64,000 nt of DNA from Myxococcales bacterium (GTDB lineage: Bacteria > Myxococcota_A > Polyangia > Polyangiales > DASUME01), in the NCBI GenBank assembly GCA_047601445.1, contig JASGJH010000001.1:5824001-5888000 (forward strand). The letters are read 5' to 3'. This document shows positions 18,384 to 40,047 of the stretch, one piece after another (position 1 is the stretch's first letter; every line of letters begins with the position of its first letter). The notes beneath the pieces are model-generated. The model was not told where the DNA came from and searched no databases. It was given only the letters and a program-made list of their open reading frames with translations. A program made the position numbers and the translations under genes.

Positions 18384-19724
18384 TCACTGTGCCTTGATAC
18401 TCGGATCCCCGATTCGTCCCGCGAACAAGACCAGGCCGCTCGAGACCTGACGGATCAAGAATGCAAACGGGCGGTTGATGGTGAGCACCGGGACCGGCGC
18501 GGGAAGCGCGCGGGTGCGGATGCCGACGGCGGTGGCCCCAGAGGCTTCGGTGCCCTTTTCGTTTACATCCACGAAGGCGCCGTGCAGCACGTGGCTCACG
18601 TAGAGGTCGCCGGGCTTGCCCGCGATCCCACTTAGGTCCGCCTGGCTGGAGAACAGGGCCTTGATCCCGAGCTCCTTGAGCATGGGGATCAACTCGACCG
18701 AATCGAGCTTGGCAGTGAAGCGGGGCAGCTGCAGCTTGGCCTTGGCCGGCTCGAGCCGCTCGAGGGTTCGGCCGAGCACGTCGGCGTCGAAGGCCTCCTT
18801 GGGCATGCTCTCTCCCCCGGGTAACACGATCACCATGGAGAGCTCGCCGCCCGCGTAGGGCAGCTCAAGCACGGTGGTGTCCTCACCGAGCATGCCGAGC
18901 GCGTAGTCCGCTTGGCGCTCCATGAAGGGCACGGAAACCGCGGGCTTGCCGCTCGGCGTGAAGGGGCCGTCGTGGGTATTCTGAGGATTGAAAGCGTCCT
19001 TCCACACAGCCTGCATGGCCACTGCGCTCACCAGCACGGCGCGCGTGAGCGAGTCGATGCTGCCTGGGCCGAGCAGCCGCTCGAGGCGGCCACCCGTGTG
19101 GGTCGCAATGTCCTGGTTGATGCGCTCGCGGGCCGACTCGGGGCTCTTGGAGAAGGGAACGCTGAAGCTGCTGGCGTGGTAGCCCTCGCGCAGTTCGCGC
19201 GCGAAGGCGGGTGCCACGGACATGGCCTCGTCGGCATAGAAGCCACTCGCCACGTGGAGCGCGTTGCCGGCGCCGGGCGCCGTCGCGAGACGAGCGAGCT
19301 CCTTCGCGAGCAGCAAGCCCTGACCCGGTTTGATCGCCAGGGCCTTCTCCAGCTCGCGCGCCGTTTGTTCGCGCGCCCCCGGCAAGGTCATCTGCAGCGC
19401 CAAGGTGGCGGTGATGGGGGCCAGGACCAGGTTGACGCGGCCGGGCTCCAGATCCCGGAGCATGCGCAGAGCGAGCTGGTTGGCGGCGAGCACCAGACTA
19501 GGAGGTAGGTTCGAGGTGTGCGGCCGCGCGCTGTCTTCCTGCTCGGGTACAGGCGGCTCGGCGACCTCCTCGATGCCTTCCCCCGGAGTCGGCTCGGCGG
19601 GAGGCGCTTCGGGCTCCTCGAGCGCAGGTTTGGGTGCGCTCTTGGGCACATCCCCCGCCGGCTGCTTCGCCGAATTGCACGCCATCGTCAGCACGAGCCA
19701 TGCGGCCCAACGGGAGCTCCCCAC
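18384..19724 (-). CDS. Serpin lipoprotein
   Basis: Hinge VNEKGTEASGAT, NRPFAFLIR, LFAGRI and LELPY; GGAGG before GTG 19724; lipobox TMAC. Confidence 0.88.
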   Translation of the reverse strand: MGSSRWAAWLVLTMACNSAKQPAGDVPKSAPKPALEEPEAPPAEPTPGEGIEEVAEPPVPEQEDSARPHTSNLPPSLVLAANQLALRMLRDLEPGRVNLVLAPITATLALQMTLPGAREQTARELEKALAIKPGQGLLLAKELARLATAPGAGNALHVASGFYADEAMSVAPAFARELREGYHASSFSVPFSKSPESARERINQDIATHTGGRLERLLGPGSIDSLTRAVLVSAVAMQAVWKDAFNPQNTHDGPFTPSGKPAVSVPFMERQADYALGMLGEDTTVLELPYAGGELSMVIVLPGGESMPKEAFDADVLGRTLERLEPAKAKLQLPRFTAKLDSVELIPMLKELGIKALFSSQADLSGIAGKPGDLYVSHVLHGAFVDVNEKGTEASGATAVGIRTRALPAPVPVLTINRPFAFLIRQVSSGLVLFAGRIGDPSIKAQ

Positions 19725-19792
19725 GTACGACCCTCCGGCAGCGCAGTGTGCCACGAGGACGCGCGCTCCGGGGATGCTTCTCGCAACGTGGC

Positions 19793-21451
19793 TCAGAGCT
19801 CTGGAAGGACACTCGAAAGAGCGATGGTGAGCCCGCCGACCTCGAGTGTGGCCCAGTTGGCCTGGGGCTCGGGAATGTAGAGGAAGCTCTCGCTGCTGTG
19901 ATCCAGATGCACGCGTGAGGCCTCGAGCTCGGCGACGAGGTTGCCCTGGGCGTCGCGCACCCGCAGGGGTTCGAATTCCCCGCCGGGCGTCTCCGAGGTC
20001 ACGAAGCCGGCCCAGCGCGCCGATCCGTTGCCGTAGAGGATGAGGCTGTGCCAGGGGCCGCCGGCGATGAGCGCGCTCGTGCGGCTCTTGGTGGTGGCGC
20101 TGGTGGCGTTGTTCACGATCAGCGAGCGAGCTGCCAGGGCGGAGTACGTGTAGTCGCTGATCCAGGTGGGCTCGCAATAGCCCATCATGTCCTTGAGCGT
20201 GGGCTGCATGAGGGTCTTGCTGCGCGCGTCCCAACCCCAACTGCCGATGTCGCCCCCGGTGTACGGGTACTTGGCGTCCACGCCGTCGATCTTGCCGCCC
20301 GAGGGTACGCACGGCGAGTGGCCTCGCCCGTGGGCATGGCCGAGCTCGTGCACCGCGGTGGAGGGCGTATTGTCGTCGATGTAGCCCACCCCGAGCCCGA
20401 TTTGATCGACGCTGCTCACGTTGACCGTCTGCGGCGCCAGGCCGAGCACGCAGCTCCCGCTGCAATAGGTTCGCAGCGTGCTCTTGGGTGTGATCAGCCC
20501 GAAGTAATAGGTATTGCGGGGCGCGCCATCGCGCTGGCGCTGCTTGCGGATCTCGTTCAGGAGCTCGCTCCAGCCGTCGCCGTTGGCGTCGACCGAGTAG
20601 GCCCAGGTCAGGGCCGCCGCCACGTTGACCTCCACCTTGGCCACCGGATAGTACGCGGCCAGCGCTGAGCGGATGCTCTCGATCTGCGCGGCGCTCGTGT
20701 CCGGCAACAATGTGCCGAGGCGCACGGGCACCAGCGTGACGCGCAAGGTGCCCAGGTCCTCCGCAGAGAGCGCTTGCGCTCCGCTCTTGGGGAAGCGCGC
20801 GCCCGGGTTGTCCTTGCGCTTGGGATTGCACTTCTCCTCCACCAAGGCCGCGCTCAGGGTGGTGTCGGGGCCGAGCGCCGCGGCGGGCACGTTGAAGTTG
20901 AAGGTGCTGCCGAAGTCGGCGTCGGTGGAGGCCTTGCTCGGCGTGAGGCGTGCCTCGAGGCGCGTAACCTGCGAGCCATTCTGCAGCGTGAGTGTGCCCA
21001 GCACGGCATGGGCGCTGTAGCCGGTGAGCGGCTCCGCGAAGACACGCACCAGGGCTTCCTTGCCCTGTGTCACGGGGGCCGCTTGCTCGCTGACCCAGGC
21101 ACCGCCCGAGACCAAGGTGACCTTCACGGTCTGATAGAGCGCGACGTCCTTGATGCGCAAAGTCTCCACCAGGGACTCACTGTCAGGCCCGCACGGATCC
21201 GGCGTCTTGCCGGGCGTGCCCGCGTCCGCGTTGGTGTGCTGCTGGGCGCTGCCTGCATCTCGCACCGCGTCATCATCCGGATTGCTCGAACGATCGCCGT
21301 CACCCTCGTCTGCGCTCGCGTCCGCTTGGTCGACCGACGCCGTACTCGGATCGAGATCCGAATGCGTGGTGTCAGGGTCTTCGACCGTGCCGACACACGC
21401 GGCGACGCCGGCTGTCGTTAACAGCATTGCGAGTGGGAGAACACCGCGCAT
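19793..21451 (-). CDS. Secreted metzincin metallopeptidase lipoprotein (M66-like)
   Basis: HELGHAHGRGH zinc motif, DMMGYC Met-turn, lipobox VAAC. Confidence 0.8.
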   Translation of the reverse strand: MRGVLPLAMLLTTAGVAACVGTVEDPDTTHSDLDPSTASVDQADASADEGDGDRSSNPDDDAVRDAGSAQQHTNADAGTPGKTPDPCGPDSESLVETLRIKDVALYQTVKVTLVSGGAWVSEQAAPVTQGKEALVRVFAEPLTGYSAHAVLGTLTLQNGSQVTRLEARLTPSKASTDADFGSTFNFNVPAAALGPDTTLSAALVEEKCNPKRKDNPGARFPKSGAQALSAEDLGTLRVTLVPVRLGTLLPDTSAAQIESIRSALAAYYPVAKVEVNVAAALTWAYSVDANGDGWSELLNEIRKQRQRDGAPRNTYYFGLITPKSTLRTYCSGSCVLGLAPQTVNVSSVDQIGLGVGYIDDNTPSTAVHELGHAHGRGHSPCVPSGGKIDGVDAKYPYTGGDIGSWGWDARSKTLMQPTLKDMMGYCEPTWISDYTYSALAARSLIVNNATSATTKSRTSALIAGGPWHSLILYGNGSARWAGFVTSETPGGEFEPLRVRDAQGNLVAELEASRVHLDHSSESFLYIPEPQANWATLEVGGLTIALSSVLPEL

Positions 21452-21562: not shown

Positions 21563-22432
21563 CTAGGGCCCGATTCGCAAGCGTTGCATTCTGTAGTTCA
21601 GGCCACCCCGATCATCGCGCAAGATCACCCAAACCAGAACGTCGCCGCCCCCGGCGGGCGCACGGAAACGCGTCTGTGCGGACCCATCGGCGGCCACAGC
21701 GCCCTGACTTTCCAGCACTTCTCCGCGGCTCACGTGCCACGCGACCTCGAGCGATTCAGTTCGAGTCTGCAGACGGTTCGTGCCGTGCTCGTAGACCATG
21801 TAGCGCTCGAAGGAGGAGATCTGTGCGCGCACACGCAGGTCGATCTCCGCACCAGGTTGAACGCTCGAGACGACCGCTTCCGCGGCCTCATCGAACGCGG
21901 GGTTGCGATTGGCCACGTAGCTTGCGGCATAGTCCTGAGCGATCGCGAGCGGCGCGTCGCGCAAGGGACACAGCAGGCGCAAGCGCTCCAAGCTGACTTG
22001 AGTTTCAGGCAAGGCCACGCGCAGTGGCTGGTAGTAGCCTCCCGAGGGGTCGGCATCTCGCGGCCTCAAATCGGCCGCATCGGCGCCGCCGAAGCGGGCG
22101 CATGCGTCGGCTGGCACACGCACGTTCGCCACGACGCCCCGCTCGGGCAACGCGGGGTCTTCGCCGGCCACGCAGGAGCGCGAAGCGAAGCCCGACTCGC
22201 TGAGGGCCTTGGGCGTGCGGCACAGACTCCAGCGCACGGCGACATCGCTGCGCAGACCGTCCTCGCCAGCTACCAGCAGGGTCACGCTGATCGGGGTACC
22301 CGGCGCGGCTTCGGCTGGCTCCGCGAGGATCCCGAGCACCTGCTCGTCGCCAGCTGGGGCCAGCTCGACTTCTTCGCCAGCGAGGCAGCCGCTGATGACG
22401 AGCGCAAGCCCGCAGTTTGTCAGCTTCGTCAT
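21563..22432 (-). CDS. Cys-containing lipoprotein, last gene of the TonB-receptor operon
   Basis: MTKLTNCGLALVISGC lipoprotein signal; C-terminal WVILRDDRGG; starts 2 nt after the receptor stop. Confidence 0.7.
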   Translation of the reverse strand: MTKLTNCGLALVISGCLAGEEVELAPAGDEQVLGILAEPAEAAPGTPISVTLLVAGEDGLRSDVAVRWSLCRTPKALSESGFASRSCVAGEDPALPERGVVANVRVPADACARFGGADAADLRPRDADPSGGYYQPLRVALPETQVSLERLRLLCPLRDAPLAIAQDYAASYVANRNPAFDEAAEAVVSSVQPGAEIDLRVRAQISSFERYMVYEHGTNRLQTRTESLEVAWHVSRGEVLESQGAVAADGSAQTRFRAPAGGGDVLVWVILRDDRGGLNYRMQRLRIGP

Positions 22433-22434
22433 GC

Positions 22435-24459
22435 TCAGAGCTCCATCTGAATGCCCAGCAAGGCGAGCCAAGGCAGACCGCGCACGTCGCGCCGCCGCGT
22501 GAAGTCGTCGTTGTAGGCCACCTCTTCCACGTTGGCGCGGGCGGTGACGTTCAGCAGGTCTGCGTACAGCATCAGGCGCGAGGTCTCTCCAACGTGGAAG
22601 CTTTGCTCTGCGTGCAGATCGAGCTGGGCGAAGGCCGGGACGCGGGCGCGATTTTGTGCGGCGAAGCTGGGTTGATAGCTGTCGCTCTTGCTGTCGTAGT
22701 AGCTGCCGAGCACGCTGGTGCGTGGGTTGCCGGTGGCATAGCGAAAGCGCGTGCTCACCAGGAAGCTCTCGCGGCGGTAGCTCAACAAGGCGCTGAGCAC
22801 GTGGGTCTGGTCGAGATCGAACAGGCGCTCCATCCCAAAGGTGCCCGTGCGCGTGCTGCGGCTCAGCGTGTAGCTCGCCAGAAAGCCCACGCCGCTCTCC
22901 ACCTGCCGTTGCAACAGGAGTGCCCCGCCATAACTCCATCCGCTGCCGCTCTGTACGAGCGCATGGGAGACACGCGGTGTGGGATCGTCGCTGCGCCGCG
23001 CGAGTCGATCGAGCTGCTTGGCGAAGCCCTCGGCGCGCAGCACGATCCCCGCCGGTAGCTCGGCCTGGGGCCCCATGCTGCCCACCATGGCGCGTGAAGC
23101 ACCGAGGCTCGGAGTGCCGAAGACCGCGCTCAGATCGCTCGCCGCGGGTGGTTGATGGTGCAGCCCCGCCCGCGCCTGCAGACGGAGGGCAGGATGGAGC
23201 GCCAGCGATATGGCCACGCGCGGCTCGGGGTAGGCGGCCAGCTCATCGTGTCCCACGGCGGGCACGCCGCCCAGCTTGGGCGTGCTGCGGTTCACGGAGA
23301 GGGCATAGAGCTCGAGCCGCAGACCGAGTTGCGCGGAGAAGGGACCGCGCTGCACAGCGACACTGGCATAGGGCGCGACGTTGCTGCTGTTGGTGCGCCA
23401 GCGATCCCGATTCACCTCATCGCCGGGGCCTTGCCCGAATACGTGCAAGTCGCCCTCGCGCGCCGGCAAGGTCAAGCTCCCTGCGCGCTCGAGCCGGCTC
23501 GCCAGCGAGAGCACGTCCAGGCCCAGCTGGAGCTGCGCCGTCGGCCAGCTCCGTGCGTAACTCGCGCGTGCCCCGATCCGTGTGGCCGCGCTGCGCGCCG
23601 AGAATGGCACCAGATCGAAGCGATCGAACTCGCGTCGGTCGCCCCATCCCACGAAGCCCAGGAGCCGCACCCGGGCACCGTCGGCGTAGCGTCGCACCAG
23701 GCTCAAGGCGCCCACTTGATCGCTGCGCTCCAGGGTCTGCTGGTCCGGCACGCTAGCCACGTCCGACGCCACGCTGCGCTGCAGCCGATCGCGCGTGCCC
23801 AACCACAGCAAGCTCAGGCGCGTGCGACGGTCGACGTCCCAGCTCACCTTGCCCCCCGCGTCTGCGTGCGCCGGGACGCTCGTGCGCTCGGCGAGCTCTG
23901 GCATGAGCCCATGTACCACGCGATCGAGATAGCCGTAGCGGCCCGCGAGGCTCACGCCCCAGGCCCCTTGCTTGGCGCGCAGTTCGAGACCGCTATCGAT
24001 GCCGTCCGCGCGCAGCGAGCCGTGCAGTCCTGTTTGCCGCAGCGCGGGCGTCTCCAGCTCCACCAAGCCGCCCAGGGCGCGCCCGTGGGACGCATCGAAG
24101 GCGCCCGCTGTGAGCGCCACGTTCGCGATCAAGGCCGGAGGCACGGTGCTGCGCAGACCTCCTGGATGAAACAACGCGGGAATTTCCACGCCGTCCACGT
24201 AGACGCGTGTCTCCTGACCGGGCGATCCCCAGATGGATAGCTCCCCGGAGTCGAAGCCCGCACGCGCCACGCCGGGCAAATTCGAGAGGGCCCGCGCGGA
24301 TTCTCCCAGGGCTCCCGCCATCTCTCGCGCCTCCTGGGCTGGCAGCACTTCTGCGCCTGGTGACTCGAGGGTGCTGACGCGCGCGCTAGCGGCGTACTCC
24401 TGCGCCTGCGCCTGTGACGCCCACAAGCAGCCGCACAACGCGAGCCAGCGCGCCTTCAC
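22435..24459 (-). CDS. TonB-dependent receptor
   Basis: Signal peptide; plug NLPGVAR...VYVDGVEIP...HGRALGG; barrel motifs EPRVA, QLDLH and LNVT. Confidence 0.85.
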   Translation of the reverse strand: MKARWLALCGCLWASQAQAQEYAASARVSTLESPGAEVLPAQEAREMAGALGESARALSNLPGVARAGFDSGELSIWGSPGQETRVYVDGVEIPALFHPGGLRSTVPPALIANVALTAGAFDASHGRALGGLVELETPALRQTGLHGSLRADGIDSGLELRAKQGAWGVSLAGRYGYLDRVVHGLMPELAERTSVPAHADAGGKVSWDVDRRTRLSLLWLGTRDRLQRSVASDVASVPDQQTLERSDQVGALSLVRRYADGARVRLLGFVGWGDRREFDRFDLVPFSARSAATRIGARASYARSWPTAQLQLGLDVLSLASRLERAGSLTLPAREGDLHVFGQGPGDEVNRDRWRTNSSNVAPYASVAVQRGPFSAQLGLRLELYALSVNRSTPKLGGVPAVGHDELAAYPEPRVAISLALHPALRLQARAGLHHQPPAASDLSAVFGTPSLGASRAMVGSMGPQAELPAGIVLRAEGFAKQLDRLARRSDDPTPRVSHALVQSGSGWSYGGALLLQRQVESGVGFLASYTLSRSTRTGTFGMERLFDLDQTHVLSALLSYRRESFLVSTRFRYATGNPRTSVLGSYYDSKSDSYQPSFAAQNRARVPAFAQLDLHAEQSFHVGETSRLMLYADLLNVTARANVEEVAYNDDFTRRRDVRGLPWLALLGIQMEL

Positions 24460-25346
24460 GGCACACGGAAGCGAAAGGCCAAGCTCCCTGCACCACGACC
24501 TGCGCCCTCACGTGTGTCGCTCGGCAGGGCGATGCCGCTCGCTCGCTCGAGCGAACGGCCATTCAACCAGGCCTGCACTTCGTAATGAGAACTCGCCTCC
24601 TCGCACAGCGAGGCACTCGCCACCCGCACCGTGTACTCGCCCGCCACTGGCGCACTCGTCCACGACACGTTCTCCTCGCGTCGCCCATCGATCACACAGC
24701 CTGCGTTCGAGTCGAAGTCGAGGACGCCACCGCTCTGCCAGGCACTCGGATCCTGCGCGGGCATGCCAGGACCCGGCGCCTTGTAGGAGTTGATGTCGCC
24801 CGCCCAGATCTCGCGGTTCTCCGGCGTGATGACGTGCAGGTCGAGGTCCACGTCGCTGTCCCAGCGCAGACGCACCACTAGCTGCACCTCGTCTTCGGCG
24901 GCCACGGCCTGCAAGGTCACGCGCTCGAGCGGGCCCACGCGACCCTGCGTATCCACGGCCGCCAGCTCCAGCTCGAGTGTCTCGCCGACCTCCACGTCTC
25001 GTGAGAAGGACAGGTTCGCCTCGTAGCTGGGCAAGTCGGGTTCCTCCAGCGTGGGCACCCCCGCCACCACCACCCAGTGACCCGTCTCGCCGCGCAGTCC
25101 CACCAGCAGCGCATTGCCATTCGCCGCCAGCGCCCCCGTGACGCGCTCGCTTCGCACCCCTGGCAGGATGTGATTGTGGGGGACGTGCACCGAAGCCACG
25201 CGCGGACCGTCGCCGCTCCGAGGCATCTTCTCAGGCACGAACTGGGCCCCCTCCACGCGCAGGCGCGCGCCAAGACCTGGGTCGTTCGAAGCCCCCACGC
25301 AGCTCGCGAGCCACCACAGCATCAACAGCATGCTCGCGCGGTGCAT
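24456..25346 (-). CDS. Lipoprotein with YfaP/DUF2135-like C-terminal domain
   Basis: Lipobox LASC; LRWDSDVDLDLHVITP, LDFDSN and ENV; overlaps both neighbours. Confidence 0.7.
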   Translation of the reverse strand: MHRASMLLMLWWLASCVGASNDPGLGARLRVEGAQFVPEKMPRSGDGPRVASVHVPHNHILPGVRSERVTGALAANGNALLVGLRGETGHWVVVAGVPTLEEPDLPSYEANLSFSRDVEVGETLELELAAVDTQGRVGPLERVTLQAVAAEDEVQLVVRLRWDSDVDLDLHVITPENREIWAGDINSYKAPGPGMPAQDPSAWQSGGVLDFDSNAGCVIDGRREENVSWTSAPVAGEYTVRVASASLCEEASSHYEVQAWLNGRSLERASGIALPSDTREGAGRGAGSLAFRFRVP

Positions 25347-26710
25347 CAAAACTCCACCTGTCCGCGCAGCGTGAGGGAGTCCATGGCCAGTGTGGTGGGC
25401 TTCCCGCTCTGGCTGCGTCCGAGCGGATTCTTCTGGTGGTCGTACTCGAGCGTGACGCGCGCGAAGGGCAGCGTGCACCACGCGAGTGCGACGGCCAAGG
25501 TGCCGTAGCTGGCATCCTTGACCACCAGGCGCGCCCCCTGGCGATCGTTGGCGTCGCGATCCGGATCGTAGCTGTCGTAGCGCGCCCCGAGTTCCAGGTG
25601 TCGCGTGATCTCCTGGCGCACGCCGAGCATCACGCCCAGCTCGCGCAGATTGCGCCCGAGCGCCACCGGATCCGCAGGATAGAGCGCGCGATCCAGATTG
25701 TTCGCCCAGACCAGCTCGCCATACAGCCTGCCTCGACCGAGCACGGGCCACTCGAAACTGAGCGCTGCGTCGCCCCCTAGCCCGAAGCGCTCGAAGTTCT
25801 GCGAGGCATCGCCGGGATTGCCCGGCATGCGCTGCAGCTCGGTGGGCTGCACGAGACCATCCTCGTTGGCGTCGCGAAAGACCACCGTGTCCTTGGTGGG
25901 CGCAGCGCCTGGATGAAAACCCTTCCCCCACAGGCCCGAGACGCCGATCTCCAAGGCCACCTTCTGGAACAGCTCTCCGCCCGCGCCGACGCGTCCCACG
26001 AAGTCCTTGGCGCGATTCGGATCGCGCTCCGGTAGGCTCGCGCTCTCGCTGGGGTTGCCGTTCATCACCGCCAGCGCGTAGCGCAAGAAGGACCACTCAC
26101 CTGCGATGCGTGCGCCCAGATCGCGACGGCCTGGAAACAGCGCCCGCACCCAGTTGCTCGGCTCCAGAAACAAGCGCCGATTGGCCTGCTCCGTGGTCTC
26201 GAAACCGAACGGGATCAGGAATAGTCCGAGCGTGGCCTGCACGTGGGGCCGCACGCTCTTGGGGTAACCCACTGACGCTTCGGCGCTGAACAGGCGCACT
26301 TGCGGGCCGTTGATGGTGTTGGCGTCGAGCACGACGCTTCCGCTCACGAGCCCATGGCGGGCATCGGCGCGCAAGCGGGCGCGGCGGATCACGAAGCGGT
26401 CTTCGTTGAGCGGCTGACGCGAGCCGGGGTCGAGCTCATCGATCGAGGACTGCTGATAGGTCACCGCGTCGACCTGCAGAAACCCGGACATGCGCACGCC
26501 ATCCGGCACGGGATCCGCGGTCGCGGTCGAACTCGTCGTCGTCGTCGAGCTGCTGGAGCTCTCAGCCGCAGGGGCACTGGGGGCCGGCGGACCCGGCTCG
26601 CCCGGGCTCACTTGCGCGCCTGCGGGCTTCGCGAGCGAAGCGCAGGTCAGCAGCGCCGCGAGCAGGCCGGCAAGCATCACGAAAGAGGTGCGTACGGCGC
26701 GGCGACTCAC
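25346..26710 (-). CDS. Porin, OprO/OprP-like
   Basis: Signal peptide; SGFLQVD, FVIRRARL, IPFGFE and RDLG; ends LRGQVEF. Confidence 0.75.
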   Translation of the reverse strand: MSRRAVRTSFVMLAGLLAALLTCASLAKPAGAQVSPGEPGPPAPSAPAAESSSSSTTTTSSTATADPVPDGVRMSGFLQVDAVTYQQSSIDELDPGSRQPLNEDRFVIRRARLRADARHGLVSGSVVLDANTINGPQVRLFSAEASVGYPKSVRPHVQATLGLFLIPFGFETTEQANRRLFLEPSNWVRALFPGRRDLGARIAGEWSFLRYALAVMNGNPSESASLPERDPNRAKDFVGRVGAGGELFQKVALEIGVSGLWGKGFHPGAAPTKDTVVFRDANEDGLVQPTELQRMPGNPGDASQNFERFGLGGDAALSFEWPVLGRGRLYGELVWANNLDRALYPADPVALGRNLRELGVMLGVRQEITRHLELGARYDSYDPDRDANDRQGARLVVKDASYGTLAVALAWCTLPFARVTLEYDHQKNPLGRSQSGKPTTLAMDSLTLRGQVEF

Positions 26711-26973
26711 GGCAGGGGCGGCAGACCACCATCGGCGCCCAGCAACGGAAGCACCGGGTTCGCCTCCACGCGCTCGGCGTCGCTACAGGCGTTGATGATC
26801 TCGAGGTGCGTCTTCGGGTTGGCGAAGCAGTCCGGTGGGACCCCGGCATCGCTGCCCGCGTCGACGTGCTCGCCCGCGTCGGGCTCGAGGCTCGGGCCCG
26901 CGTTGTCCTTCTCGTCCCCACCGCAAGCCAGCAGGACCAGGCCGCACAGCGCGGCAAAATGAAGCTTCTTCAT
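26707..26973 (-). CDS. Small lipoprotein
   Basis: MKKLHFAALCGLVLLAC; C-terminal DCFANPKTHLEIINAC...LPPLP; GAGG RBS. Confidence 0.75.
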   Translation of the reverse strand: MKKLHFAALCGLVLLACGGDEKDNAGPSLEPDAGEHVDAGSDAGVPPDCFANPKTHLEIINACSDAERVEANPVLPLLGADGGLPPLP

Positions 26974-26978
26974 GGTGC

Positions 26979-28205
26979 TTACCTCGCCTCGCAGAAGTCG
27001 TGTCGGCAGACCCCGCTCGCACAGGGCGTCTGAGCGTCGCACGGGACGCAGCCCGCGGGCGTTGCCTTGGTGACGCGGCTCTCGTAGTGACAGCCGCAGG
27101 GTTCAGCCGGCTCGTAGAGGGAGAGCTCACCGCCCTCCACGCTGCGCGTCACGCGCATGGCGCAGTCGGGCACCAGACCCACGTCGGTCACGATGTCGAG
27201 CGCTTCGAAGTCCGCAGCGGGCTCGGTGTGGAGCCCCAGGATCGAGTCGATGAGGTACTTGGCGCGCGGATCGACCGGCGCGCCGGCGGTGTCCACCTTG
27301 GTGAGCCACACGGTGGGAGACCAGGGCACGTAATGGCCATCGCGCACGTTGCGCTTGTCGAAGGAGGTCGCGCTCGAGTCGGGATAGTACGCATAGCGCT
27401 GACCGTAGGCGCGGTAGGCGAGCACGTTCACCTGGTCGCGGTGCTGGTCGTAGAGCTCGACCCCGAGGATGCCGATGGACTTTTCGGGGTTGGTGGAAGC
27501 CGTCAGCGCGCTCAACACTTCGCTCGACTTGTCGAAGCGCTGGCCACGCCACTTGTCGGCCGGCACGCTGATGGCCGCCGCCATGCTGAGCAGCGTGCTC
27601 TTGGTCACCGTGCGGATGTACATGAAGGCTTCGTCGGTCCACGGCTCGGCCATGCCGCCGTTGCCGAACCCGAATACGAAGTAACCCTGCTCGGCCGTGA
27701 TGGACTTCTGCAGACTCGCCTCGGGCACCACGAACGAGTAGCCCTGCACCGGTCCCTGGAACAGCTTGATGCCCGCGGGCGGGATGGCCGGGTTGCAGGC
27801 CGACACGAACAGCGCGGAGTTGGCCACGTCGATGGCGTGGCCGCCGTCGGGGATGGTGCAGGTAGGCGAAGGATCCTTCGGCGTCCAGCCGGCGTTGGCC
27901 GTGCTCGACGGCACGTAGAAGGGGTTCTTGGTGATCTTGGTGTCGGCGTAGATCGCCTCGATGTTGGTGCAGGACCCTGACGTCACGTAGACGAGGGTCA
28001 TCGGCTGCACGGCCGAGTTCGCCAGGGCGCGCCCCAGGTTCTTCAACAGCGGTTCCTGCGTATCGCCCACCTGCAAGTAGATGGGATTCGGTAGGTCACC
28101 GCACGCCACGTCCTGGGCGTGCGCCACGCCGGTTAGCCCGGTCAAGGCACACAGCAGCCCGCACGCGGCAGCCAGAGCCCATCGGGCTCGCTTGGTCGCT
28201 CGCAT
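26979..28205 (-). CDS. Secreted Cys-rich PstS-like substrate-binding protein
   Basis: Signal ..AHA; PBP2-like segments YVTSGSC, SIGIL and NVRDGHYVPWSP; Cys-rich tail; GAGGAG RBS. Confidence 0.6.
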   Translation of the reverse strand: MRATKRARWALAAACGLLCALTGLTGVAHAQDVACGDLPNPIYLQVGDTQEPLLKNLGRALANSAVQPMTLVYVTSGSCTNIEAIYADTKITKNPFYVPSSTANAGWTPKDPSPTCTIPDGGHAIDVANSALFVSACNPAIPPAGIKLFQGPVQGYSFVVPEASLQKSITAEQGYFVFGFGNGGMAEPWTDEAFMYIRTVTKSTLLSMAAAISVPADKWRGQRFDKSSEVLSALTASTNPEKSIGILGVELYDQHRDQVNVLAYRAYGQRYAYYPDSSATSFDKRNVRDGHYVPWSPTVWLTKVDTAGAPVDPRAKYLIDSILGLHTEPAADFEALDIVTDVGLVPDCAMRVTRSVEGGELSLYEPAEPCGCHYESRVTKATPAGCVPCDAQTPCASGVCRHDFCEAR

Positions 28206-28250
28206 CGTCACTCCTCTCAAGTCGCGAGGGGCTATCACGCTGCTGCACAT

Positions 28251-28268
28251 GGGTAAAGCAAAGCTGAC
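28251..28268. promoter_or_regulatory. Operator copy 1 (GGGTAAAGCAAAGCTGAC)
   Basis: 17/18 identical to 28396-28413; 45 nt upstream of the minus-strand operon start. Confidence 0.7.
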
Positions 28269-28395
28269 TCGAAGACGCGTTTAATTTACTCCGGCAAAGA
28301 AGTCGAAATATGCGGGGGGCGAGCGTCTAGCCAGCAGCGTCACCGGGAGTCCCCGGCCGCCCGCGTCTAAATCCCGTGCGCCGGGGAGGGCATTC

Positions 28396-28413
28396 GGGTA
28401 AAGCAAACCTGAC
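28396..28413. promoter_or_regulatory. Operator copy 2 (GGGTAAAGCAAACCTGAC)
   Basis: Directly abuts the regulator ATG at 28414. Confidence 0.7.
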
Positions 28414-29550
28414 ATGGCCTCTCAACTCGAGAATCGCGTGCGCACGCTGCGCGAGGCGCGCGGGCTCACCCAGGCTGCGCTGTGCGAGGCAGTGCAGATC
28501 AGCCGTCAGACCCTGAGCGCCATCGAGGCGGGTCGCAGTGAGCCCTCGGTCGCCATCGCCCTGGGCCTGGCCCGCGTGCTGGGCGCGCCGGTGGAAGAGG
28601 TGTTCTCGCTCGAAGGCAGCCGGGTGGTGGAAGCAGAGCTCGAGGGCGAGGCTCCACAGGCGAGCGGCGGCAGTGAGCGCGTCTTGCTGGCGAGCATCCA
28701 GGGCCGATGGGTGGCCCATCGCTTGAGCAAAGAGGAGAGCGCGCAGCGCGCCGCCGATGGCCTCCTGCTGCCCGCGAGCAAACCACTCACGAAGCAGCGT
28801 GCCCGCGTGGAGCTCCTGCGGCCGGAGTCGGAGGTTCGCGACACGCTGCTCCTGGCAGGTTGTGCGCCCGCGCTTGGGCTGCTGGCGGAGCGCACCAACC
28901 AACAGATGCGCGACCTGCGGGTGGTCTGGCTGCCGCGGGCCAGCGGCGCGGCCCTGGCGGCGCTCAAGGCGCGGCGCGCCCACGTGGCCGGTGTGCATTT
29001 CGTGGACGAGCGCAGCGGGCAGTTCAACGTGCCCGAGGTGAAAGAAGCGCTGCCCGGCAAGAAGCTCAGCTTGGTCACGCTGGCGCGCTGGCAGCAGGGG
29101 CTGCTGGTGGCGCGGGGCAATCCGCTCGGCATTCGCGGCGTGGAGGACCTGGCCCGCCCCGAGCTGCGCCTGCTGGCGCGCGAGGAGGGCTCGGGCGCGC
29201 GGCGTCTGCTCGAGGACAAGCTCAAGCGCGCGCGGCTGCCGGCCAAGCGTATCTTGAGTGCGGCGCGCGTGGTGGGTGGTCACATGGACGTGGCTCAGGG
29301 CATCGCGCTCGGCGCCGCCGACGTGGGCGTGGCCATGGAGGGTGCGGCGCTGGCATTCCAGCTCGACTTCGTGCCGCTGCACGAGGAGCGCTTCGACCTG
29401 GTGGTACCGCGCGAGATCCTCGACGATGCCCGCGTGGTGCGCTTGCTCGAGACGCTCTCGAGCGCGAGCTTTCGCCGCGAGCTCCAGGGGCTCGGCGGTT
29501 ACGATGTCGAGGGCGCAGGGGCGCTCGCGGCCGAGATAGGTGGCACATGA
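28414..29550 (+). CDS. XRE-HTH regulator with C-terminal molybdate-type PBP-like domain
   Basis: NRVRTLREARGLTQ...ISRQTLSAIEAG; AHVAGVH, QGLLVARGNP, REEGSGAR and ERFDLV; first gene of the mod operon. Confidence 0.85.
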   Translation: MASQLENRVRTLREARGLTQAALCEAVQISRQTLSAIEAGRSEPSVAIALGLARVLGAPVEEVFSLEGSRVVEAELEGEAPQASGGSERVLLASIQGRWVAHRLSKEESAQRAADGLLLPASKPLTKQRARVELLRPESEVRDTLLLAGCAPALGLLAERTNQQMRDLRVVWLPRASGAALAALKARRAHVAGVHFVDERSGQFNVPEVKEALPGKKLSLVTLARWQQGLLVARGNPLGIRGVEDLARPELRLLAREEGSGARRLLEDKLKRARLPAKRILSAARVVGGHMDVAQGIALGAADVGVAMEGAALAFQLDFVPLHEERFDLVVPREILDDARVVRLLETLSSASFRRELQGLGGYDVEGAGALAAEIGGT

Positions 29551-30407
29551 AGTCGTTGGCTGGTCTGGGATGGAGTCTCTTGTTGTTGGCCTGTGCGTGC
29601 GGACCCAAGGCCGCTGAGCCAGGTGCGCCCGCGCCGGACGCGTCGATACCGAAGGTGGCGGCACCCGCAGAGGTCCCCGTCATCCAGGTGGCGGCCGCCT
29701 CCGATCTCACGCCCGCCCTGCAGGCGATGGCGCCCGAGTTCGAGCGCGCCACGGGCAAGAAGGTTTCCCTGACCTTTGCCGCCACCGGCATCTTGGCCAA
29801 GCAGATCGCCGAAGGCGCGCCCTTCGACGTGTTCGCGGCGGCCAACGAGTCCTTCGTGGACCAGGTGATCGAAAAGGGCGCCTGCGACGCGAGCACCAAA
29901 GCGCCCTACTCGGAGGGACGCCTCGTGCTGTGGCAGCGCAAGGACGTCCAGGACCCCCTGCCCGACTGGCCCGCGCTCAAGAACGCCAAGTACAAACACA
30001 TCGCCATCGCCAACCCCGAGCACGCCCCTTACGGCAAGGCCGCCAAGCAGACCCTCGAGAAGCTCGACCTGTGGCAAGCAGTCGAGTCGCGCATCGTCTA
30101 CGGAGAGAACGTCAAGCAGACCATGCAATTCGCGGAGAGCGGCAACGCCGAGCTGGCCTTCGTCGGACTCTCGCTGGCGCTGGCGAGTGACGGCAACTAC
30201 CGCGAGGTGAGCCCCGAGCTCCACCAGCCCATCAAGCAGACCATCGTGGTCTGCAAAAACGGCAAGGCCCAGGCCGCAGGCAAGCTGTTCGCGGAGTACC
30301 TCAACAGCCCCGAAGGGCGGCGCGTGTTGAACGCGCACGGTATCCTGTTTCCCCACGAGTCACTGGCCGGCTCGGACAAGAAGCCAGACGCCGCAGCACC
30401 CAAGTGA
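29547..30407 (+). CDS. modA: Molybdate ABC transporter substrate-binding lipoprotein
   Basis: AAASDL, QIAEGAPFDVF, IANPEHAPYG and GENV; ATGA overlap with the regulator. Confidence 0.92.
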   Translation: MKSLAGLGWSLLLLACACGPKAAEPGAPAPDASIPKVAAPAEVPVIQVAAASDLTPALQAMAPEFERATGKKVSLTFAATGILAKQIAEGAPFDVFAAANESFVDQVIEKGACDASTKAPYSEGRLVLWQRKDVQDPLPDWPALKNAKYKHIAIANPEHAPYGKAAKQTLEKLDLWQAVESRIVYGENVKQTMQFAESGNAELAFVGLSLALASDGNYREVSPELHQPIKQTIVVCKNGKAQAAGKLFAEYLNSPEGRRVLNAHGILFPHESLAGSDKKPDAAAPK

Positions 30408-31069
30408 GCTTCCAACCCCTCGCGCTCTCCTTTCAGATCGCCGTGATCGCGACCGTATTGGCGCTCCTGGTGGGCGTGTCGGTGGCGGCCATCGCGGCGC
30501 TCTGGCGCTCGCGGCTCGGGGACCTGCTCGACGCGCTGATCACGGCGCCCATGGTGCTGCCACCCACGGTGCTCGGATACTACTTGCTGGTGGCGCTCGG
30601 ACGTCAGAGCGTGATCGGCCGCGCCTTCGAGTCGCTCACCGGCTCCTCCATCGTGTTCACGCGCAGTGGTGCCGTGGTGGCCGCCACGTTCGGAGCGCTA
30701 CCCTTGATCACCAAGGCTGCCCGCGCCGCCATGGAAGACGTGGACCCGACGTTGGTCGCCGCCGCCCGCTCGCTCGGCGCCACCTCGCTGCGCGCCTTCA
30801 CCAGCGTGACCTTGCCCCTGGCCCGTGGTGGCATCGTGGCCGGGGCCACGCTCGGCTTCGCCCGGGCGCTGGGCGACTTCGGCGTCACGTTGATGCTGGC
30901 GGGCAACATCCCGGGCCTCACGCGCACGGCCTCGCTCGCCATCTACGACGCCGTGCAGGCCAATCGCGAGCAGGAGGCGCTCGGCATGGTGCTCGTGCTC
31001 AGCGCGCTCGCGCTGGCAACCCTCTACACAGTGAATCGCCTCCAGCGCCGGAGCTACCGTGGCCTCTGA
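30404..31069 (+). CDS. modB: Molybdate ABC transporter permease
   Basis: PMVLPPTVLGYYLL and FARALGDFGVTLMLAGNIPG. Confidence 0.93.
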   Translation: MSFQPLALSFQIAVIATVLALLVGVSVAAIAALWRSRLGDLLDALITAPMVLPPTVLGYYLLVALGRQSVIGRAFESLTGSSIVFTRSGAVVAATFGALPLITKAARAAMEDVDPTLVAAARSLGATSLRAFTSVTLPLARGGIVAGATLGFARALGDFGVTLMLAGNIPGLTRTASLAIYDAVQANREQEALGMVLVLSALALATLYTVNRLQRRSYRGL

Positions 31070-31706
31070 GCTCGAGGTCGAGCTGCGCGTGCAGGCCGGG
31101 CGGCGTGCCAATCACGAGATCGCGCTCGAGCTACGCGTGCCCGCGGGAGTCAGCGCCTTGTGCGGGCCTTCGGGGATCGGCAAGACCACGGTGCTCAACG
31201 CCATCGCGGGTTTGTTTCGACCTGACATGGCCGAGATTCGCCTCGCCGAACGCACGCTGTTTTCGAGCCGGAGCGGGGTGGACTTGCCACCGGAGCGCCG
31301 CCGTGTGGGCTTCGTGTTCCAGAGCTTGGCCCTATTCCCTCATTTGAGTGCCATCGACAACGTCGCCTATGGCTTGCCCAAGACTACAACCGATCGCAGA
31401 CGCGAGGCCCAGCGCTGGCTCGAGCGCACGCAGGTTCCCCATCTGGCCCAGCGCAAGCCCAACACCTTCTCCGGCGGCGAAGCCCAGCGCGTGGCTCTCG
31501 CGCGCGCCCTCGCCAGCAGCCCGCAACTGCTCCTGCTGGACGAGCCGTTCACGGCCCTGGAAGAAGATCTGCGCGTGCGGCTGGGCGGCGAGGTCGTTCA
31601 GATCGTGTCCGAGCTCGGCATTCCATGTCTGCTCGTAACGCACGACCGGGCCGAGGCTGGACGTCTGGCACAAAGGATCTTCGAGCTACGCGCCGGCGGA
31701 CGTTGA
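31059..31706 (+). CDS. modC: Molybdate ABC transporter ATPase (short, no TOBE domain)
   Basis: GPSGIGKT, SGGEAQR, LLLLDEP and VTHD; LPPERRRVGFVFQ. Confidence 0.88.
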   Translation: MASELEVELRVQAGRRANHEIALELRVPAGVSALCGPSGIGKTTVLNAIAGLFRPDMAEIRLAERTLFSSRSGVDLPPERRRVGFVFQSLALFPHLSAIDNVAYGLPKTTTDRRREAQRWLERTQVPHLAQRKPNTFSGGEAQRVALARALASSPQLLLLDEPFTALEEDLRVRLGGEVVQIVSELGIPCLLVTHDRAEAGRLAQRIFELRAGGR

Positions 31707-32126: not shown

Positions 32127-32681
32127 ATGTATGCGAGAATTGGCCGAGCTCGGGTCTCAACGGTGCCTGGGCACGCTCCCTCTTGCTCGACTTCATGGCG
32201 CGCAGGAGGGCAACGTCTGTTCGAGGGCTCGCGCTTGCAGGGCCGCTGCAGTCTTGTTCGAGAGCACGCGGCGATGACGGATTGGCTCGAGTGACCACTC
32301 GGAGAAAAGGCACGTGTGGCGTCGTCAACCCATCGACCCGCGTCTGCACGCTAGAGGGAACTGCTTTGCCTTCCGATGTAACGCCGAAACGCCGTGATCA
32401 GACCGGGCCGCAAGGCCCGAAAAGACAGTCCGTAAATGCTTTGCACGACATAGCCCGCCCTTTTCACGACATGGCGAGCGAGGGGACGTGAACCACGGGT
32501 TAACAGTTTTGGGCCAAGCCTTCGCGCGCTGCTGACTGACGCGAGGGGAAATGCGTGAGTACGCCGTTCACTAGCGTGACTGCTTGGGAAACTTCGGTAG
32601 ACACACCGTAAATAAAGCCGCGCTTACTGGCTCAAGCGCCCGAGTCGCGTTCGACGCACTGGCTTCGACCTGGGGGGGTCT

Positions 32682-36024: not shown

Positions 36025-36117
36025 GTGACTGCACTGCATGTCATCGGCGGCGGACTCTCGCTTGCCCTCTTGGTGTATCTGCTGTTCGCACTGCTCTACC
36101 CGGAGAAGCTGTCATGA
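36025..36117 (+). CDS. kdpF: K+-transporting ATPase subunit F (absent from the ORF track)
   Basis: GGAGG RBS, GTG start; MTALHVIGGGLSLALLVYLLFALLYPEKLS; ATGA overlap with kdpA. Confidence 0.9.
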   Translation: MTALHVIGGGLSLALLVYLLFALLYPEKLS

Positions 36118-37862
36118 CCTGGAACGCGGTCGTGCAATGCGGCCTCTATCTGACGGTGCTGACCGCACTCGGTCTGCCCCTCGGTAGCTACATGGCGCGC
36201 GTCTACACGGGCGAGGCACGAGTCGCCCAGCGCGTGCTCGGTCCGCTCGAGCGCCTGTTCTATCGGCTCGCCGGCGTACGCGCGGACGACGACATGGGCT
36301 GGCCGCGCTATGCGCTTTCCGTCCTGGTCTTCGGCCTGTTCGGGACCTTGGTGGTGTACGTGTTGATGCGGGTGCAGCACGCGCTTCCGCTCAACCCCGC
36401 GCAGATGCCGGCTGTCGATCCCGAGGTCAGCTTCAACACCGCGGTGAGCTTCGCCAGCAACACCAACTGGCAGGCCTACGGCGGCGAGAGCACGCTCAGC
36501 TACTTCACCCAGATGGTGGCGCTCACGGTGCAGAACTTCGTGTCTGCGGCGGCGGGCATGGCGGTGCTGGTGGCGCTGGTGCGCGGGTTCACGCGTCGTC
36601 AGGCGAGCGGCGTCGGCAACTTCTGGGTCGACATGACCAAGAGCACACTCTACGTGCTGCTTCCGCTGTCCATCGTGCTTGCCCTCTTGCTCGTCAGTCA
36701 GGGTGTGGTGCAGACCTTTGGCCCCTATGCGCATGCCAAGCTGCTCGAGCCGATCAAGCACGCGAACGGCACCACGATCAGCGAGCAAGTTCTGGCCCTC
36801 GGTCCGGCTGCCTCGCAAATCGCGATCAAGCAACTCGGCACCAATGGCGGCGGCTTCTTCAACGTGAACTCGGCGCACCCCTTCGAGAACGCCACGCCGT
36901 TCTCGAACTTCCTCGAGGTGCTGTCCATCCTGCTCATCCCGGCGGCCCTCTGTTTCACCTTTGGCGCGCTCATCAAGGATCGCCGCCAGGGCTTCGCGCT
37001 CTACGCGGCCATGCTGGCCATCTTCGTGCCGCTGCTCATCCTGTGCGTCGCTGCGGAGCAACACGGAAACCCCGTGCTCGGTGCGCTCGGCGTCGACCAG
37101 GCCGAGCACGCACTGTCGGTGGGCGGGAACATGGAGGGCAAGGAGGTGCGCTTCGGGATCGCCAACAGCGGACTGTGGGCGGTCGCTACCACGGCGGCCT
37201 CCAACGGGTCGGTGAATGCGATGCACGACAGCTTCACGCCGCTCGGCGGCCTCGTGCCGATGTGGTTGATGCAGCTCGGTGAGATCGTCTTCGGCGGTGC
37301 GGGCTCGGGGCTCTACGGCATGCTGATGTACGCCATTATCGCGGTGTTCATCGCCGGGCTGATGGTGGGTCGCACGCCCGAATACCTGGGCAAGAAAATC
37401 GAGGCCTATGAGATGAAGATGGCCTCGCTGGTGATCTTGCTGCCCGCAGCCGCGGTGTTGCTCGGCACGGCCATCGCGTGCGTGGTACCGGCGGGCTCGG
37501 CCAGCCTGGGCAATCCCGGGGTGCACGGCTTTAGCGAGATCTTGTACGCGTTCTCTTCCGGCAGCAATAACAACGGCTCGGCCTTTGGTGGCATCACGGT
37601 GAGCGGGATGTTCTACGCCACGGCCATCGGCATCTGCATGTTGATCGGACGCTTCTGGGTGATGGTGCCGGTGCTGGCCATCGCGGGCTCTCTGGCAAAG
37701 AAGAAACTCGTGCCGCCCAGCGCAGGTACCTTGCCCACGCACACCCCGCTCTTCGTGGGCCTCCTGGTGGGCACGGTGGTGCTGGTGGGAGCGCTCACCT
37801 TCATTCCCTCGCTGGCGCTTGGGCCAGTGGTCGAACACCTGCTCCTGCACACCCACGGCTGA
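36114..37862 (+). CDS. kdpA: K+-transporting ATPase subunit A
   Basis: NTNWQAYGGE, KQLGTNGGGFF, SNGSVNAMHDS and NNNGSAF. Confidence 0.97.
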   Translation: MTWNAVVQCGLYLTVLTALGLPLGSYMARVYTGEARVAQRVLGPLERLFYRLAGVRADDDMGWPRYALSVLVFGLFGTLVVYVLMRVQHALPLNPAQMPAVDPEVSFNTAVSFASNTNWQAYGGESTLSYFTQMVALTVQNFVSAAAGMAVLVALVRGFTRRQASGVGNFWVDMTKSTLYVLLPLSIVLALLLVSQGVVQTFGPYAHAKLLEPIKHANGTTISEQVLALGPAASQIAIKQLGTNGGGFFNVNSAHPFENATPFSNFLEVLSILLIPAALCFTFGALIKDRRQGFALYAAMLAIFVPLLILCVAAEQHGNPVLGALGVDQAEHALSVGGNMEGKEVRFGIANSGLWAVATTAASNGSVNAMHDSFTPLGGLVPMWLMQLGEIVFGGAGSGLYGMLMYAIIAVFIAGLMVGRTPEYLGKKIEAYEMKMASLVILLPAAAVLLGTAIACVVPAGSASLGNPGVHGFSEILYAFSSGSNNNGSAFGGITVSGMFYATAIGICMLIGRFWVMVPVLAIAGSLAKKKLVPPSAGTLPTHTPLFVGLLVGTVVLVGALTFIPSLALGPVVEHLLLHTHG

Positions 37863-37874
37863 AAGAGATTGATC

Positions 37875-40034
37875 ATGACCTTACCTGGCAAAGTGTCGTC
37901 GGTGCAGGCCGTTCCAGCGGAGACGTCGCCCGCCTCTGCGGTGGACACGCTGGTCGCGTCGACTGCCAAGGCTCAAACGCGGCCACTGTTCGAGACGGCC
38001 ATCGTGCGTCGCGCCCTGCTCGACTCGGTGAGCAAACTCCATCCACGACACATGGTCCGCAACCCCGTGATGTTCGTGGTGGAGGTTGGCAGCGCGTACA
38101 CCAGCTTCCTGTTCGTGCACGCGCTGTTCACCGGGCATGGTGAGGCTTCGCCCTGGTTCATCCTGGCGGTCTCGATCTGGCTGTGGTTCACGGTGTTGTT
38201 CGCCAACTTTGCGGAGGCCATGGCCGAAGGGCGCGGCAAGGCGCAGGCGGATACCCTGCGCAAGGCGCGCAAGGACGTGATGGCCAAGCGCTTGAGCGAA
38301 GCCCGTCGCGGAGCCGACTACACGGAGGTGGTGAGCGGCCGACTGCGGGAGGGTGACGTCGTACTGGTCGACGCTGGAGACCTGATTCCAGGAGACGGAG
38401 AGGTGGTGGAAGGTGCGGCCTCCGTCGATGAAAGCGCCATCACCGGCGAGAGCGCTCCCGTGATTCGAGAGAGCGGTGGAGACCGCAGTGCGGTCACCGG
38501 AGGCACGCGCGTGCTCTCGGACTGGCTGATCGTGCGCATCACGGCCAACCCTGGAGAGACCTTCTTGGATCGCATGATCTCCATGGTGGAAGGCGCCAAG
38601 CGCAAGAAGACCCCCAACGAGATCGCCCTCGACATTTTGCTGGCTGGGCTCTCGATTATCCTGCTGCTCGCCACGGTGACCTTGCTTCCCTATTCGCTGT
38701 TCGCAGTGCAGACGGCGGGCGCCGGGATGCCGGTGAGTCAGACCATCTTGGTCGCGCTCCTGGTGTGCTTGATCCCGACCACCATCGGCGGACTCCTGTC
38801 CGCCATCGGCATCGCAGGCATGGACCGGATGATCCAGGCCAATGTAATCGCGACCTCCGGACGAGCGGTGGAAGCGGCGGGCGACGTGGACGTGCTCTTG
38901 CTCGACAAGACAGGCACCATCACGCTCGGCAACCGGCAAGCCACTGCGTTTCTGCCGGCGACCGGAGTGGGAGAGCGTGAGCTCGCGGACGCCGCTCAGC
39001 TCGCATCGCTCGCCGACGAGACCCCTGAAGGACGCAGCATCGTCGTGCTCGCCAAGGAGAAGTTCAACCTGCGTGGCCGCGACCTGCACCAGCTCGGCGC
39101 CCACTTCGTGCCCTTCAGCGCCGCCACTCGCATGAGCGGCGTGGACTTGAACGGCCAACGCATCCGCAAAGGCGCGGGGGAAGCCATCGAGCGCTTCGTC
39201 CAGGAGCAGCACGGTAGCTTGCCAGCCCAGGTGCGCGCGTCGCTCGACGAGGTGGCCAGGGCTGGCGGAACGCCGCTCGTGGTCGCCGACGGTGCGCGCG
39301 TGCTCGGTGTGGTGCACCTGAAGGACATCGTGAAAGGCGGCATCAAAGAGCGCTTCGTGGAGATGCGAAAGATCGGCATTCGCACCGTGATGATCACGGG
39401 CGACAACCCGGTGACGGCCGCGGCCATCGCGGCCGAGGCGGGCGTGGACGACTTCCTCGCCGAGGCCACGCCAGAGGCCAAGCTCGGCATGATCCGAGAG
39501 TATCAGGCCAAGGGTCACCTGGTGGCGATGACGGGTGACGGCACCAACGATGCACCGGCGCTCGCCCAAGCCGACGTGGCGGTGGCGATGAACACGGGGA
39601 CTCAGGCGGCCAAGGAAGCAGGCAACATGGTGGACCTCGACTCCAATCCCACCAAGCTGCTCTCCATCGTCGAGATCGGGAAGCAGATGCTGATCACCCG
39701 TGGCGCCTTGACCACCTTCAGCATCGCCAACGATCTGGCCAAGTACTTCGCCATTATCCCGGCCGCCTTCGCGGTCACCTATCCGCAGCTCGACGCGCTC
39801 AACGTGATGGGCCTGCACTCGCCCACCACGGCCGTGTTGTCTGCGGTGATCTTCAACGCACTCATCATCGTGGCGCTGATCCCGCTGGCGCTGCGCGGCA
39901 TTCGCTATCGCCCGGTGGGGGCGTCTCGCATGCTTCGCCACAACATCCTGGTGTACGGGGTGGGCGGCGTGGTGCTGCCGTTTCCTTTCATCAAGTTGAT
40001 CGACGTGCTGCTCACCGCCATCGGTGTGGGCTGA
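37875..40034 (+). CDS. kdpB: K+-transporting ATPase subunit B
   Basis: [18 protein letters not shown] and GDGTND. Confidence 0.97.
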
Positions 40035-40047
40035 AGGAGGGGCCGTC

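Follow-up and report, generated by a model that had tools for sequence, protein, structure and literature searches.

Several TonB receptors work together with surface lipoproteins, as in SusCD, BtuB-BtuG and TbpAB, and in the Pho regulon the binding protein PstS is paired with the porins OprO/OprP. Little has been established about how molybdate passes the outer membrane at trace levels. Within the accessible passages, the only protein-based route found in print is that of the H2 type VI secretion system (H2-T6SS) of P. aeruginosa, which involves a secreted ModA and a metalloproteinase and leads to ModA-IcmP molybdate uptake (PMC8602904, PMC11734730). SftP of P. putida S-313 is described, in an excerpt of the respective report, as a TonB receptor in a sulfate-ester-use cluster (PMC7711191). 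Here, a six-gene envelope module is described that lies opposite the molybdate transporter genes modABC in Myxococcales bacterium (GCA_047601445.1, contig JASGJH010000001.1, positions 5,824,001 to 5,888,000 of the forward strand). This 64,000-nucleotide (nt) stretch, the whole of the DNA analysed around the locus, is referred to as the window; the host genome has 9.5 Mb and is 98.7% complete. The conserved module is real, and there is good genomic evidence that the variant in the window is linked to molybdenum (Mo).

The six genes, numbered g1 to g6, are located on the minus strand. A PstS-fold, Cys-rich protein with a signal peptide judged by eye to be cleavable is encoded by g1 (26979..28205; 408 amino acids (aa), 14 Cys). 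It is followed by a small lipoprotein (g2, 26707..26973; 88 aa), an OprO/OprP-like porin (g3, 25346..26710; 454 aa), a lipoprotein with two beta-sandwich domains in its structure model (g4, 24456..25346; 296 aa), a TonB-dependent receptor (g5, 22435..24459; 674 aa) and, directly after the receptor gene, a lipoprotein from a Myxococcota family without a name (g6, 21563..22432; 289 aa). An initial annotation, made from the letters of the sequence, had described this layout, and most of it was confirmed: the genes overlap or are spaced by 5 nt or less (junctions +5, -4, -1, -4 and +2 nt), they diverge from a regulator-modABC operon, the intergenic region carries an 18-bp box in two copies that are 17/18 identical, and all six products are envelope-targeted, with signal peptides recognized by eye in each (lipobox Cys in g2, g4 and g6). 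Its labels for g1 (PstS-like), g3 (OprO/P-like) and g5 (TonB-dependent receptor) agree with the structure comparison, the Atlas and a Plug domain, respectively. The label 'YfaP-like' for g4 was supported by no scan: no Pfam family, YfaP/DUF2135 included, matched at E 0.01.

Compared with the described systems, the module combines familiar parts in a different arrangement. Like ModA-IcmP, it would, as proposed here, employ an extracellular binder that delivers molybdate to an outer-membrane partner; unlike ModA-IcmP as far as the available passages describe it, the binder is of the PstS fold and likely held by a lipid anchor, and its gene is grouped with those of a porin, a TonB receptor and three lipoproteins. 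The fold of g1 and the porin type of g3 correspond to PstS and OprO/OprP, and one version of the module keeps the canonical PstS pocket, but the version in the window differs in its pocket, lacks pstCAB, includes a TonB receptor as an additional part and is linked to Mo genes. As in SusCD, BtuB-BtuG and TbpAB, the receptor is co-encoded with lipoproteins that would capture cargo; in contrast to these systems, no family match was found for g2, g4 and g6, the binder has a periplasmic-binding-protein fold, a porin is included and the cargo is apparently an oxyanion. SftP is a precedent for a sulfur-linked version of the module, although the SftP passage mentions no PstS-fold protein, porin or lipoprotein set (PMC7711191). 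A full-text literature search, with most subscription papers and supplements outside its coverage, returned no description of the module, which is apparently undescribed.

Homologues of g1 number 1152, with matches in 26/251 genomes of the phylum, 63/121 genomes of one family (f2) and 6/107 genomes of another class. The survey covered 189 loci: the best 80 of 185 matches of one search, all 29 outside matches of the phylum search, 79 of 103 matches from family f2 and one of six from the other class. Among the matches not used, some were already part of the set and others were on very short contigs. Ten loci were dropped as duplicates or g1 fragments, leaving 179 loci with 120 operons. Based on the g1 pocket, the operons were divided into three types, M, P and S, of which the window represents M. 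Class counts refer to 119 operons (79 M, 23 P, 17 S) and leave aside an operon and six single genes whose pockets were not classified. All six genes are present in 48/64 M loci with at least 6.5 kb of downstream sequence, and only g2 is missing in 13. Three genomes (G318, G311 and G280) each hold M, P and S operons, and M and P operons occur together in five genomes. The genome of the window contains a second full operon (G000:C1:5583044-5593140) with an S-type pocket and inserted exbB-exbD-tonB genes. This S copy faces sulP and is followed by sbp-cysTWA (L001, L002; G000:C1:5583044-5602392), and is located near a sigma-54 activator and a porin. The same genome encodes a stand-alone g1 homologue (L003, G000:C1:3818032-3819654) with a canonical PstS pocket and, by eye, a g2-like N-terminal part, with a Ser/Thr kinase-like gene upstream of it. 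Of the surveyed loci, 42 are P-type genes of this kind, either single or cut off.

The AlphaFold model of g1 has a predicted local distance difference test (pLDDT) score of 90.9 and a PstS-type fold. The comparison to PstS (4ecf) yielded a VIA Z of 25.4 and a root-mean-square deviation of 2.3 over 250 aligned residues, and Foldseek concurs; the values for other binders were VIA Z 15.6 (sulfate-binding SubI), 14.8 (ModA) and 13.2 (TupA). Sequence searches with g1 found nothing in PDB, Pfam, NCBIfam or viral contigs, including no ModA/TupA/WtpA family match in Pfam and NCBIfam; fused g1 forms were absent among proteins of 904-2580 aa, which is weak evidence. In the window, the pocket residues, mapped from a weak alignment, are G47-D48-T49-Q50, S78, S130-A131, R198 and K202-S203-T204. 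The P pocket is that of canonical PstS, with S/T at position 48, S78, D131 in 23/23 operons and an SGT motif. The M pocket, in contrast, has D48 in 75/77 operons, A or N in 79/79 at position 131, the column of the phosphate-selecting Asp, and K202-S203-T204. From P to M, the motifs thus change from SGT to KST and from GSS/T to GDT. The S pocket has A78 in 17/17 operons, mostly G131, and SAA/SFV. In the same weak mapping, M-type g1 does not show the PstS combination of SGT with an Asp (as in D-type PstS) or a Ser (as in S-type PstS) as selectivity residue. M-type proteins form a clade with 100% support.

P and S operons interleave on the receptor tree, which implies that the pocket changed on a common chassis. 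Specificity appears to reside mainly in g1, because the chassis is phosphate-linked with the canonical PstS pocket and sulfur-linked with the third pocket. In archaeal ModA, octahedral molybdate coordination is supplied by carboxylates. For one such ModA, the accessible text reports octahedral coordination of molybdate (PMC11734730). In PstS proteins, an Asp selects phosphate in the D-type, and the S-type has Ser at that position and still binds phosphate, according to the part of the source at hand (PMC13614923). The pocket alone therefore cannot name the ligand.

The pocket types differ in their neighbouring genes. Regulators or transporters of Mo or tungsten (W) adjoin 31/79 M operons but none of the 23 P and 17 S operons. 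Phosphate markers are found next to 5/23 P and 0/79 M operons, and sulfur markers next to 6/17 S operons (a sigma-54 activator, assigned to sulfur from its position only, is counted here) and 1/79 M operons. Since some marker references came from surveyed loci, the count was repeated with outside references, resulting in 15/79 M vs. 0/40 other operons for Mo, 4/23 P vs. 0/96 for phosphate and 2/17 S vs. 0/102 for sulfur. Further neighbours identified with Pfam and NCBIfam are phosphonate genes or purple acid phosphatase at P loci, and TauD, encapsulin cysteine desulfurase or cysteine dioxygenase at S loci. A sigma-54 promoter pattern is present at 6/17 S operons (L153, L157, L159, L172, L244, L251) vs. 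0/23 P operons. In M operons, the Mo link is made by different genes in separate clades: the markers comprise 22 HTH-PBP_like regulators, and 12 operons have modA/modB, MOT1 or a TupA-family protein. TupA-family proteins without an adjacent permease were observed at L017, L026, L042, L047, L049, L056 and L151, some of them next to a second TonB receptor. The initial annotation had read the locus as a Mo/W uptake system and proposed to compare the linkage of homologous operons to mod and pst/pho genes. Operons with the same pocket are indeed Mo/W-adjacent in 31/79 cases and adjacent to pst/pho genes (pstCAB/phoU) in none of the 79. The Mo linkage in that reading thus holds, while it overlooked that the module also has phosphate- and sulfur-linked forms.

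The regulator gene of the window (28414..29550, plus strand) encodes an HTH_3 (XRE) and a PBP_like domain according to Pfam. In NCBIfam, it best matches PRK14498, a MoeA fusion, in the PBP part (176.6 bits, below cut-off). The downstream genes on the same strand are modA (29547..30407; a lipoprotein by eye), with 202.7 bits to TIGR01256 (cut-off 62.5), modB (30404..31069), with 212.9 bits to TIGR02141 (cut-off 182.6), and modC (31059..31706), a short form of 215 aa rather than a full-length ModC, whose best match, TIGR02142, scores 204.4 bits against a cut-off of 285. All 15 PDB sequences matched by modA are named molybdate-binding or molybdenum ABC (ATP-binding cassette) binding proteins.

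The duplicated 18-bp box turned out to be a conserved operator of HTH_3-PBP_like regulators, in agreement with the Mo linkage read by the initial annotation. The palindrome TGTAAAG-N4-CTTTACA is present at 14/14 homologous HTH_3-PBP_like promoters (8.7-18.9 bits, training set). With a matrix trained without the window, operator copy 2 (28396..28414; box at 28396-28413) scores 13.5 bits, ranking third genome-wide, and copy 1 (28251..28268; 46-63 nt upstream of the g1 start) scores 7.7 bits. No site beyond these two was found in the genome at up to two mismatches to the box, and the 25 highest-scoring genome sites of the matrix showed no other conspicuous Mo target. Copy 2, an imperfect palindrome, touches the regulator start codon, which suggests repression; the regulator is likely an oxyanion-sensing repressor. 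A scan for sigma-70 promoters and terminators gave matches at chance level, and an Rfam scan gave none, with no molybdenum cofactor (Moco) riboswitch above threshold.

Like TaoR (PMC11980592) and ModE (PMC11672702), the regulator fuses a DNA-binding domain to an oxyanion-binding domain, and PBP_like is common to it and TaoR, which the accessible text introduces as the HTH_17-PBP_like regulator of a tungsten aldehyde oxidoreductase (PMC11980592). Unlike TaoR in that text, it has HTH_3 instead of HTH_17 and a palindromic operator, and ModE uses Mop domains in the passage available (PMC11672702). At nine M operons, the regulator is of the HTH_17-PBP_like instead of the HTH_3-PBP_like type, and both neighbours of this type that were scanned (L009 and L010) combine HTH_17 and PBP_like as TaoR does. 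A tandem GGTAACATTAGG-type repeat is common to promoters near HTH_17-PBP_like regulators (L009, L010, L014, L015, L018) and is a candidate TaoR-type site.

Many M operons without an HTH-PBP regulator have a different upstream element. An 11-bp GTAAC repeat, scored with a matrix trained on the upstream regions of loci from the g1 search with 185 matches, is found upstream of 35/54 such operons, of 1/22 with an HTH-PBP regulator and of 0/83 P/S loci. In a family designated f9, a PhoB-like regulator adjoins modA in 22/25 loci, and a GTAAC repeat scoring 10 bits or more precedes this regulator in 14/25 loci vs. 9/491 background windows. The strict pattern occurs in one genome (G253) only at the PhoB-like regulator and twice at the module, and in another (G254) once, at an unrelated site. 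At the f9 loci (L130, L131, L284-L308), the PhoB-like regulator is accompanied by a HAMP kinase and adjoins a modA that is split from modBC, with the GTAAC repeat between them. Regulator and kinase are candidates for a molybdate-sensing two-component system. In five genomes, modBC is preceded by a kinase gene that was also considered as a PhoR-like Mo sensor; this reading was dropped, as the product is a short kinase encoded after another signalling gene. Taken together, three different regulators point to Mo: the HTH_3-PBP_like, the HTH_17-PBP_like and the modA-adjacent PhoB-like type.

Several observations weigh against a Mo-specific module. The fold of g1 is far nearer to PstS than to ModA or TupA, and the PstS motifs were mapped onto g1 from a weak profile alignment (probability 2.6%, E 0.018), the mapping being consistent with the fold. 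The pocket classes were set from the same alignment columns on which they were then counted, although the M type is also a fully supported clade. Loss of the Asp leaves phosphate possible, because S-type PstS binds phosphate without it in the partial text available (PMC13614923), and phosphate, arsenate or vanadate could donate a proton to the new Asp48. Neighbour counts overstate independence, since the loci are related by descent; no Mo gene adjoins 48/79 M operons, and in 19 both such a gene and the GTAAC repeat are missing. The top site of the GTAAC matrix in the genome of the window (12.9 bits) is upstream of pstS, and the repeat resembles a Pho box. The best family of the PhoB-like regulator is PhoB (231 bits, cut-off 296), and in family f2 this regulator is beside modA in 0/16 loci, with one copy flanking an S operon.

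The PstS fold, the phosphate binding of S-type PstS, the top site of the repeat at pstS and the regulator closest to PhoB, together with the OprO/P-type porin g3, are the case for a reading in which the cargo of the M version is still phosphate or a similar anion (arsenate, vanadate, phosphonate), the Mo neighbours reflect regulatory reuse and GTAAC is a true Pho box. A plain Pho box was the first interpretation of the repeat. It was downgraded because five pstS promoters in f9-type genomes reach only 5.3-7.7 on the GTAAC matrix and carry a GTCAC repeat, and because a separate phoB-phoR-phoU-pstSCAB cluster exists in 4/5 of these genomes; phosphate is kept as a rival since a Pho-like repeat is located upstream of many M operons. 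PhoB is beside 4/23 P operons and pst/pho genes beside no M operon, five genomes have both M and P operons, and the operon in the window shares its operator with modABC, all of which argues that phosphate capture by the M version is unlikely.

The remaining components bear on how a Mo-linked module might work. In 61 of the 79 M operons, g2 is present and g1 has no lipobox, and in 12, g2 is absent and g1 is a lipoprotein with a long linker; by pattern, three have neither, three are unscorable and none has both. It is likely that g2 is a detached lipid anchor of g1. The g3 model matches a PF07396 cluster that reaches the naming bar of the Atlas (predicted models) with a template modelling (TM) score of 0.76, in agreement with a barrel; no Pfam match and no meaningful PDB match by profile was found. 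In g3, an insertion at residues ~273-295 is conserved and includes an acidic motif resembling an EF-hand. In the fold search, the g4 model (pLDDT 90.2) had only generic immunoglobulin (Ig)-like matches, the best of them for the N-terminal Ig-like domain (Z 9.5). For g5, the Plug domain (PF07715, E 8e-8) is above cut-off and the barrel match is weak; its profile matches TonB receptors in PDB, and 37% identity to a paralogue with PF00593 above cut-off supports a plug and C-terminal barrel. The N-terminal TonB_C/CarboxypepD extension of this paralogue is absent. For g6, the Atlas gives only unnamed Myxococcota clusters at TM > 0.5, and the profile has no PDB match.

The interpretation that we consider probable is that of a Mo-repressed, membrane-tethered PstS-fold binder that feeds the receptor and porin and then ModABC. 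The regulator would repress both operons when molybdate is present, and Mo starvation would lift this repression. Likely tethered to the outer membrane by g2, g1 may bind molybdate or a Mo complex outside the cell, and g5 would import the cargo into the periplasm, with g6 as a putative lid and the TonB motor borrowed from elsewhere, M operons having no exbBD-tonB. A parallel pore or display route may be provided by g3-g4, and ModABC would complete uptake from the periplasm. The gene content, its conservation, the folds of g1, g3 and g5, the operator, the pocket types with their neighbours and the alternation of g2 with a g1 lipobox are observed, and ligand, surface exposure, physical contacts, transport direction and repression are predictions.

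The module could instead be Mo-linked and non-importing, with molybdate sensed or held at the surface, or with a porin that exports and displays lipoproteins while the receptor signals. Such a role would fit the 0/69 M operons with exbBD, the stand-alone g1 homologue beside a kinase-like gene (L003) and the plain-ion porins that already adjoin sulfate and phosphate ABC clusters. It is nevertheless improbable, as exbD is present in 15/18 P and 12/12 S operons, which implies energised transport by the same chassis, and no sigma/anti-sigma or kinase gene is conserved in M operons.

Specific capture of tungstate, or of vanadate, rather than molybdate is suggested by the TaoR-type regulators beside nine M operons and the TupA-family proteins beside six. 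In the window, the adjacent transporter is ModABC, and the one TupA-family neighbour that was aligned is devoid of the TTTS stretch of its best PDB match. The genome of the window has eight molybdopterin-oxidoreductase matches and one xanthine-oxidase-type match, and no match to a W-type aldehyde oxidoreductase (aldehyde:ferredoxin oxidoreductase). Mo is therefore favoured over W here, and a W- or vanadate-specific cargo is very unlikely. A position beside modABC by chance, with an unrelated cargo, is hardly credible: the full divergent regulator-modABC layout was found at no other locus (L006 has modAB without the regulator), but several different Mo markers occur in separate clades and none beside P/S operons, and the operator is shared.

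In the vicinity of the module, an M66-type peptidase lipoprotein and a bacterial serpin are encoded after g6 on the same strand (window 18384-21451). They were ruled out as module members because they are present in 0/189 loci. On the other side, two 16-nt repeats 21 nt apart (window 32439-32475) are located upstream of a PAS hybrid kinase gene at 32682, and kdpA (Pfam), followed by genes resembling kdpBCDE, forms an ordinary cluster at 36114-44145. Elsewhere on the contig, G000:C1:1-150000 has a GC content of 0.56-0.62 vs. ~0.67 in the remainder and contains frameshifted genes, probably due to a chimeric join or contamination; at 104.6-106.4 kb, it includes a broken HTH_3-PBP_like gene beside a TupA-family gene.

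In a wider and more tentative interpretation, which is possible without being the probable one, Myxococcota possess an undescribed family of six-component outer-membrane oxyanion scavengers, in which changes to the pocket of a PstS-fold protein redirect one chassis (tether, porin, TonB receptor and two lipoproteins) towards phosphate, sulfur or molybdenum. The M type would then be dedicated to bringing in molybdate, or a complex such as prey-derived Moco, with energy supplied through TonB; its PstS-fold binder would prefer a metal oxyanion, and its three regulators would include a PhoBR paralogue that senses Mo. The locus supplies an operator for HTH_3-PBP_like regulators. With three natural pocket variants on one fold, the discrimination of phosphate, sulfate and molybdate can be compared among paralogues of one genome. 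The module is a concrete candidate for a molybdate route across the outer membrane in abundant soil bacteria.

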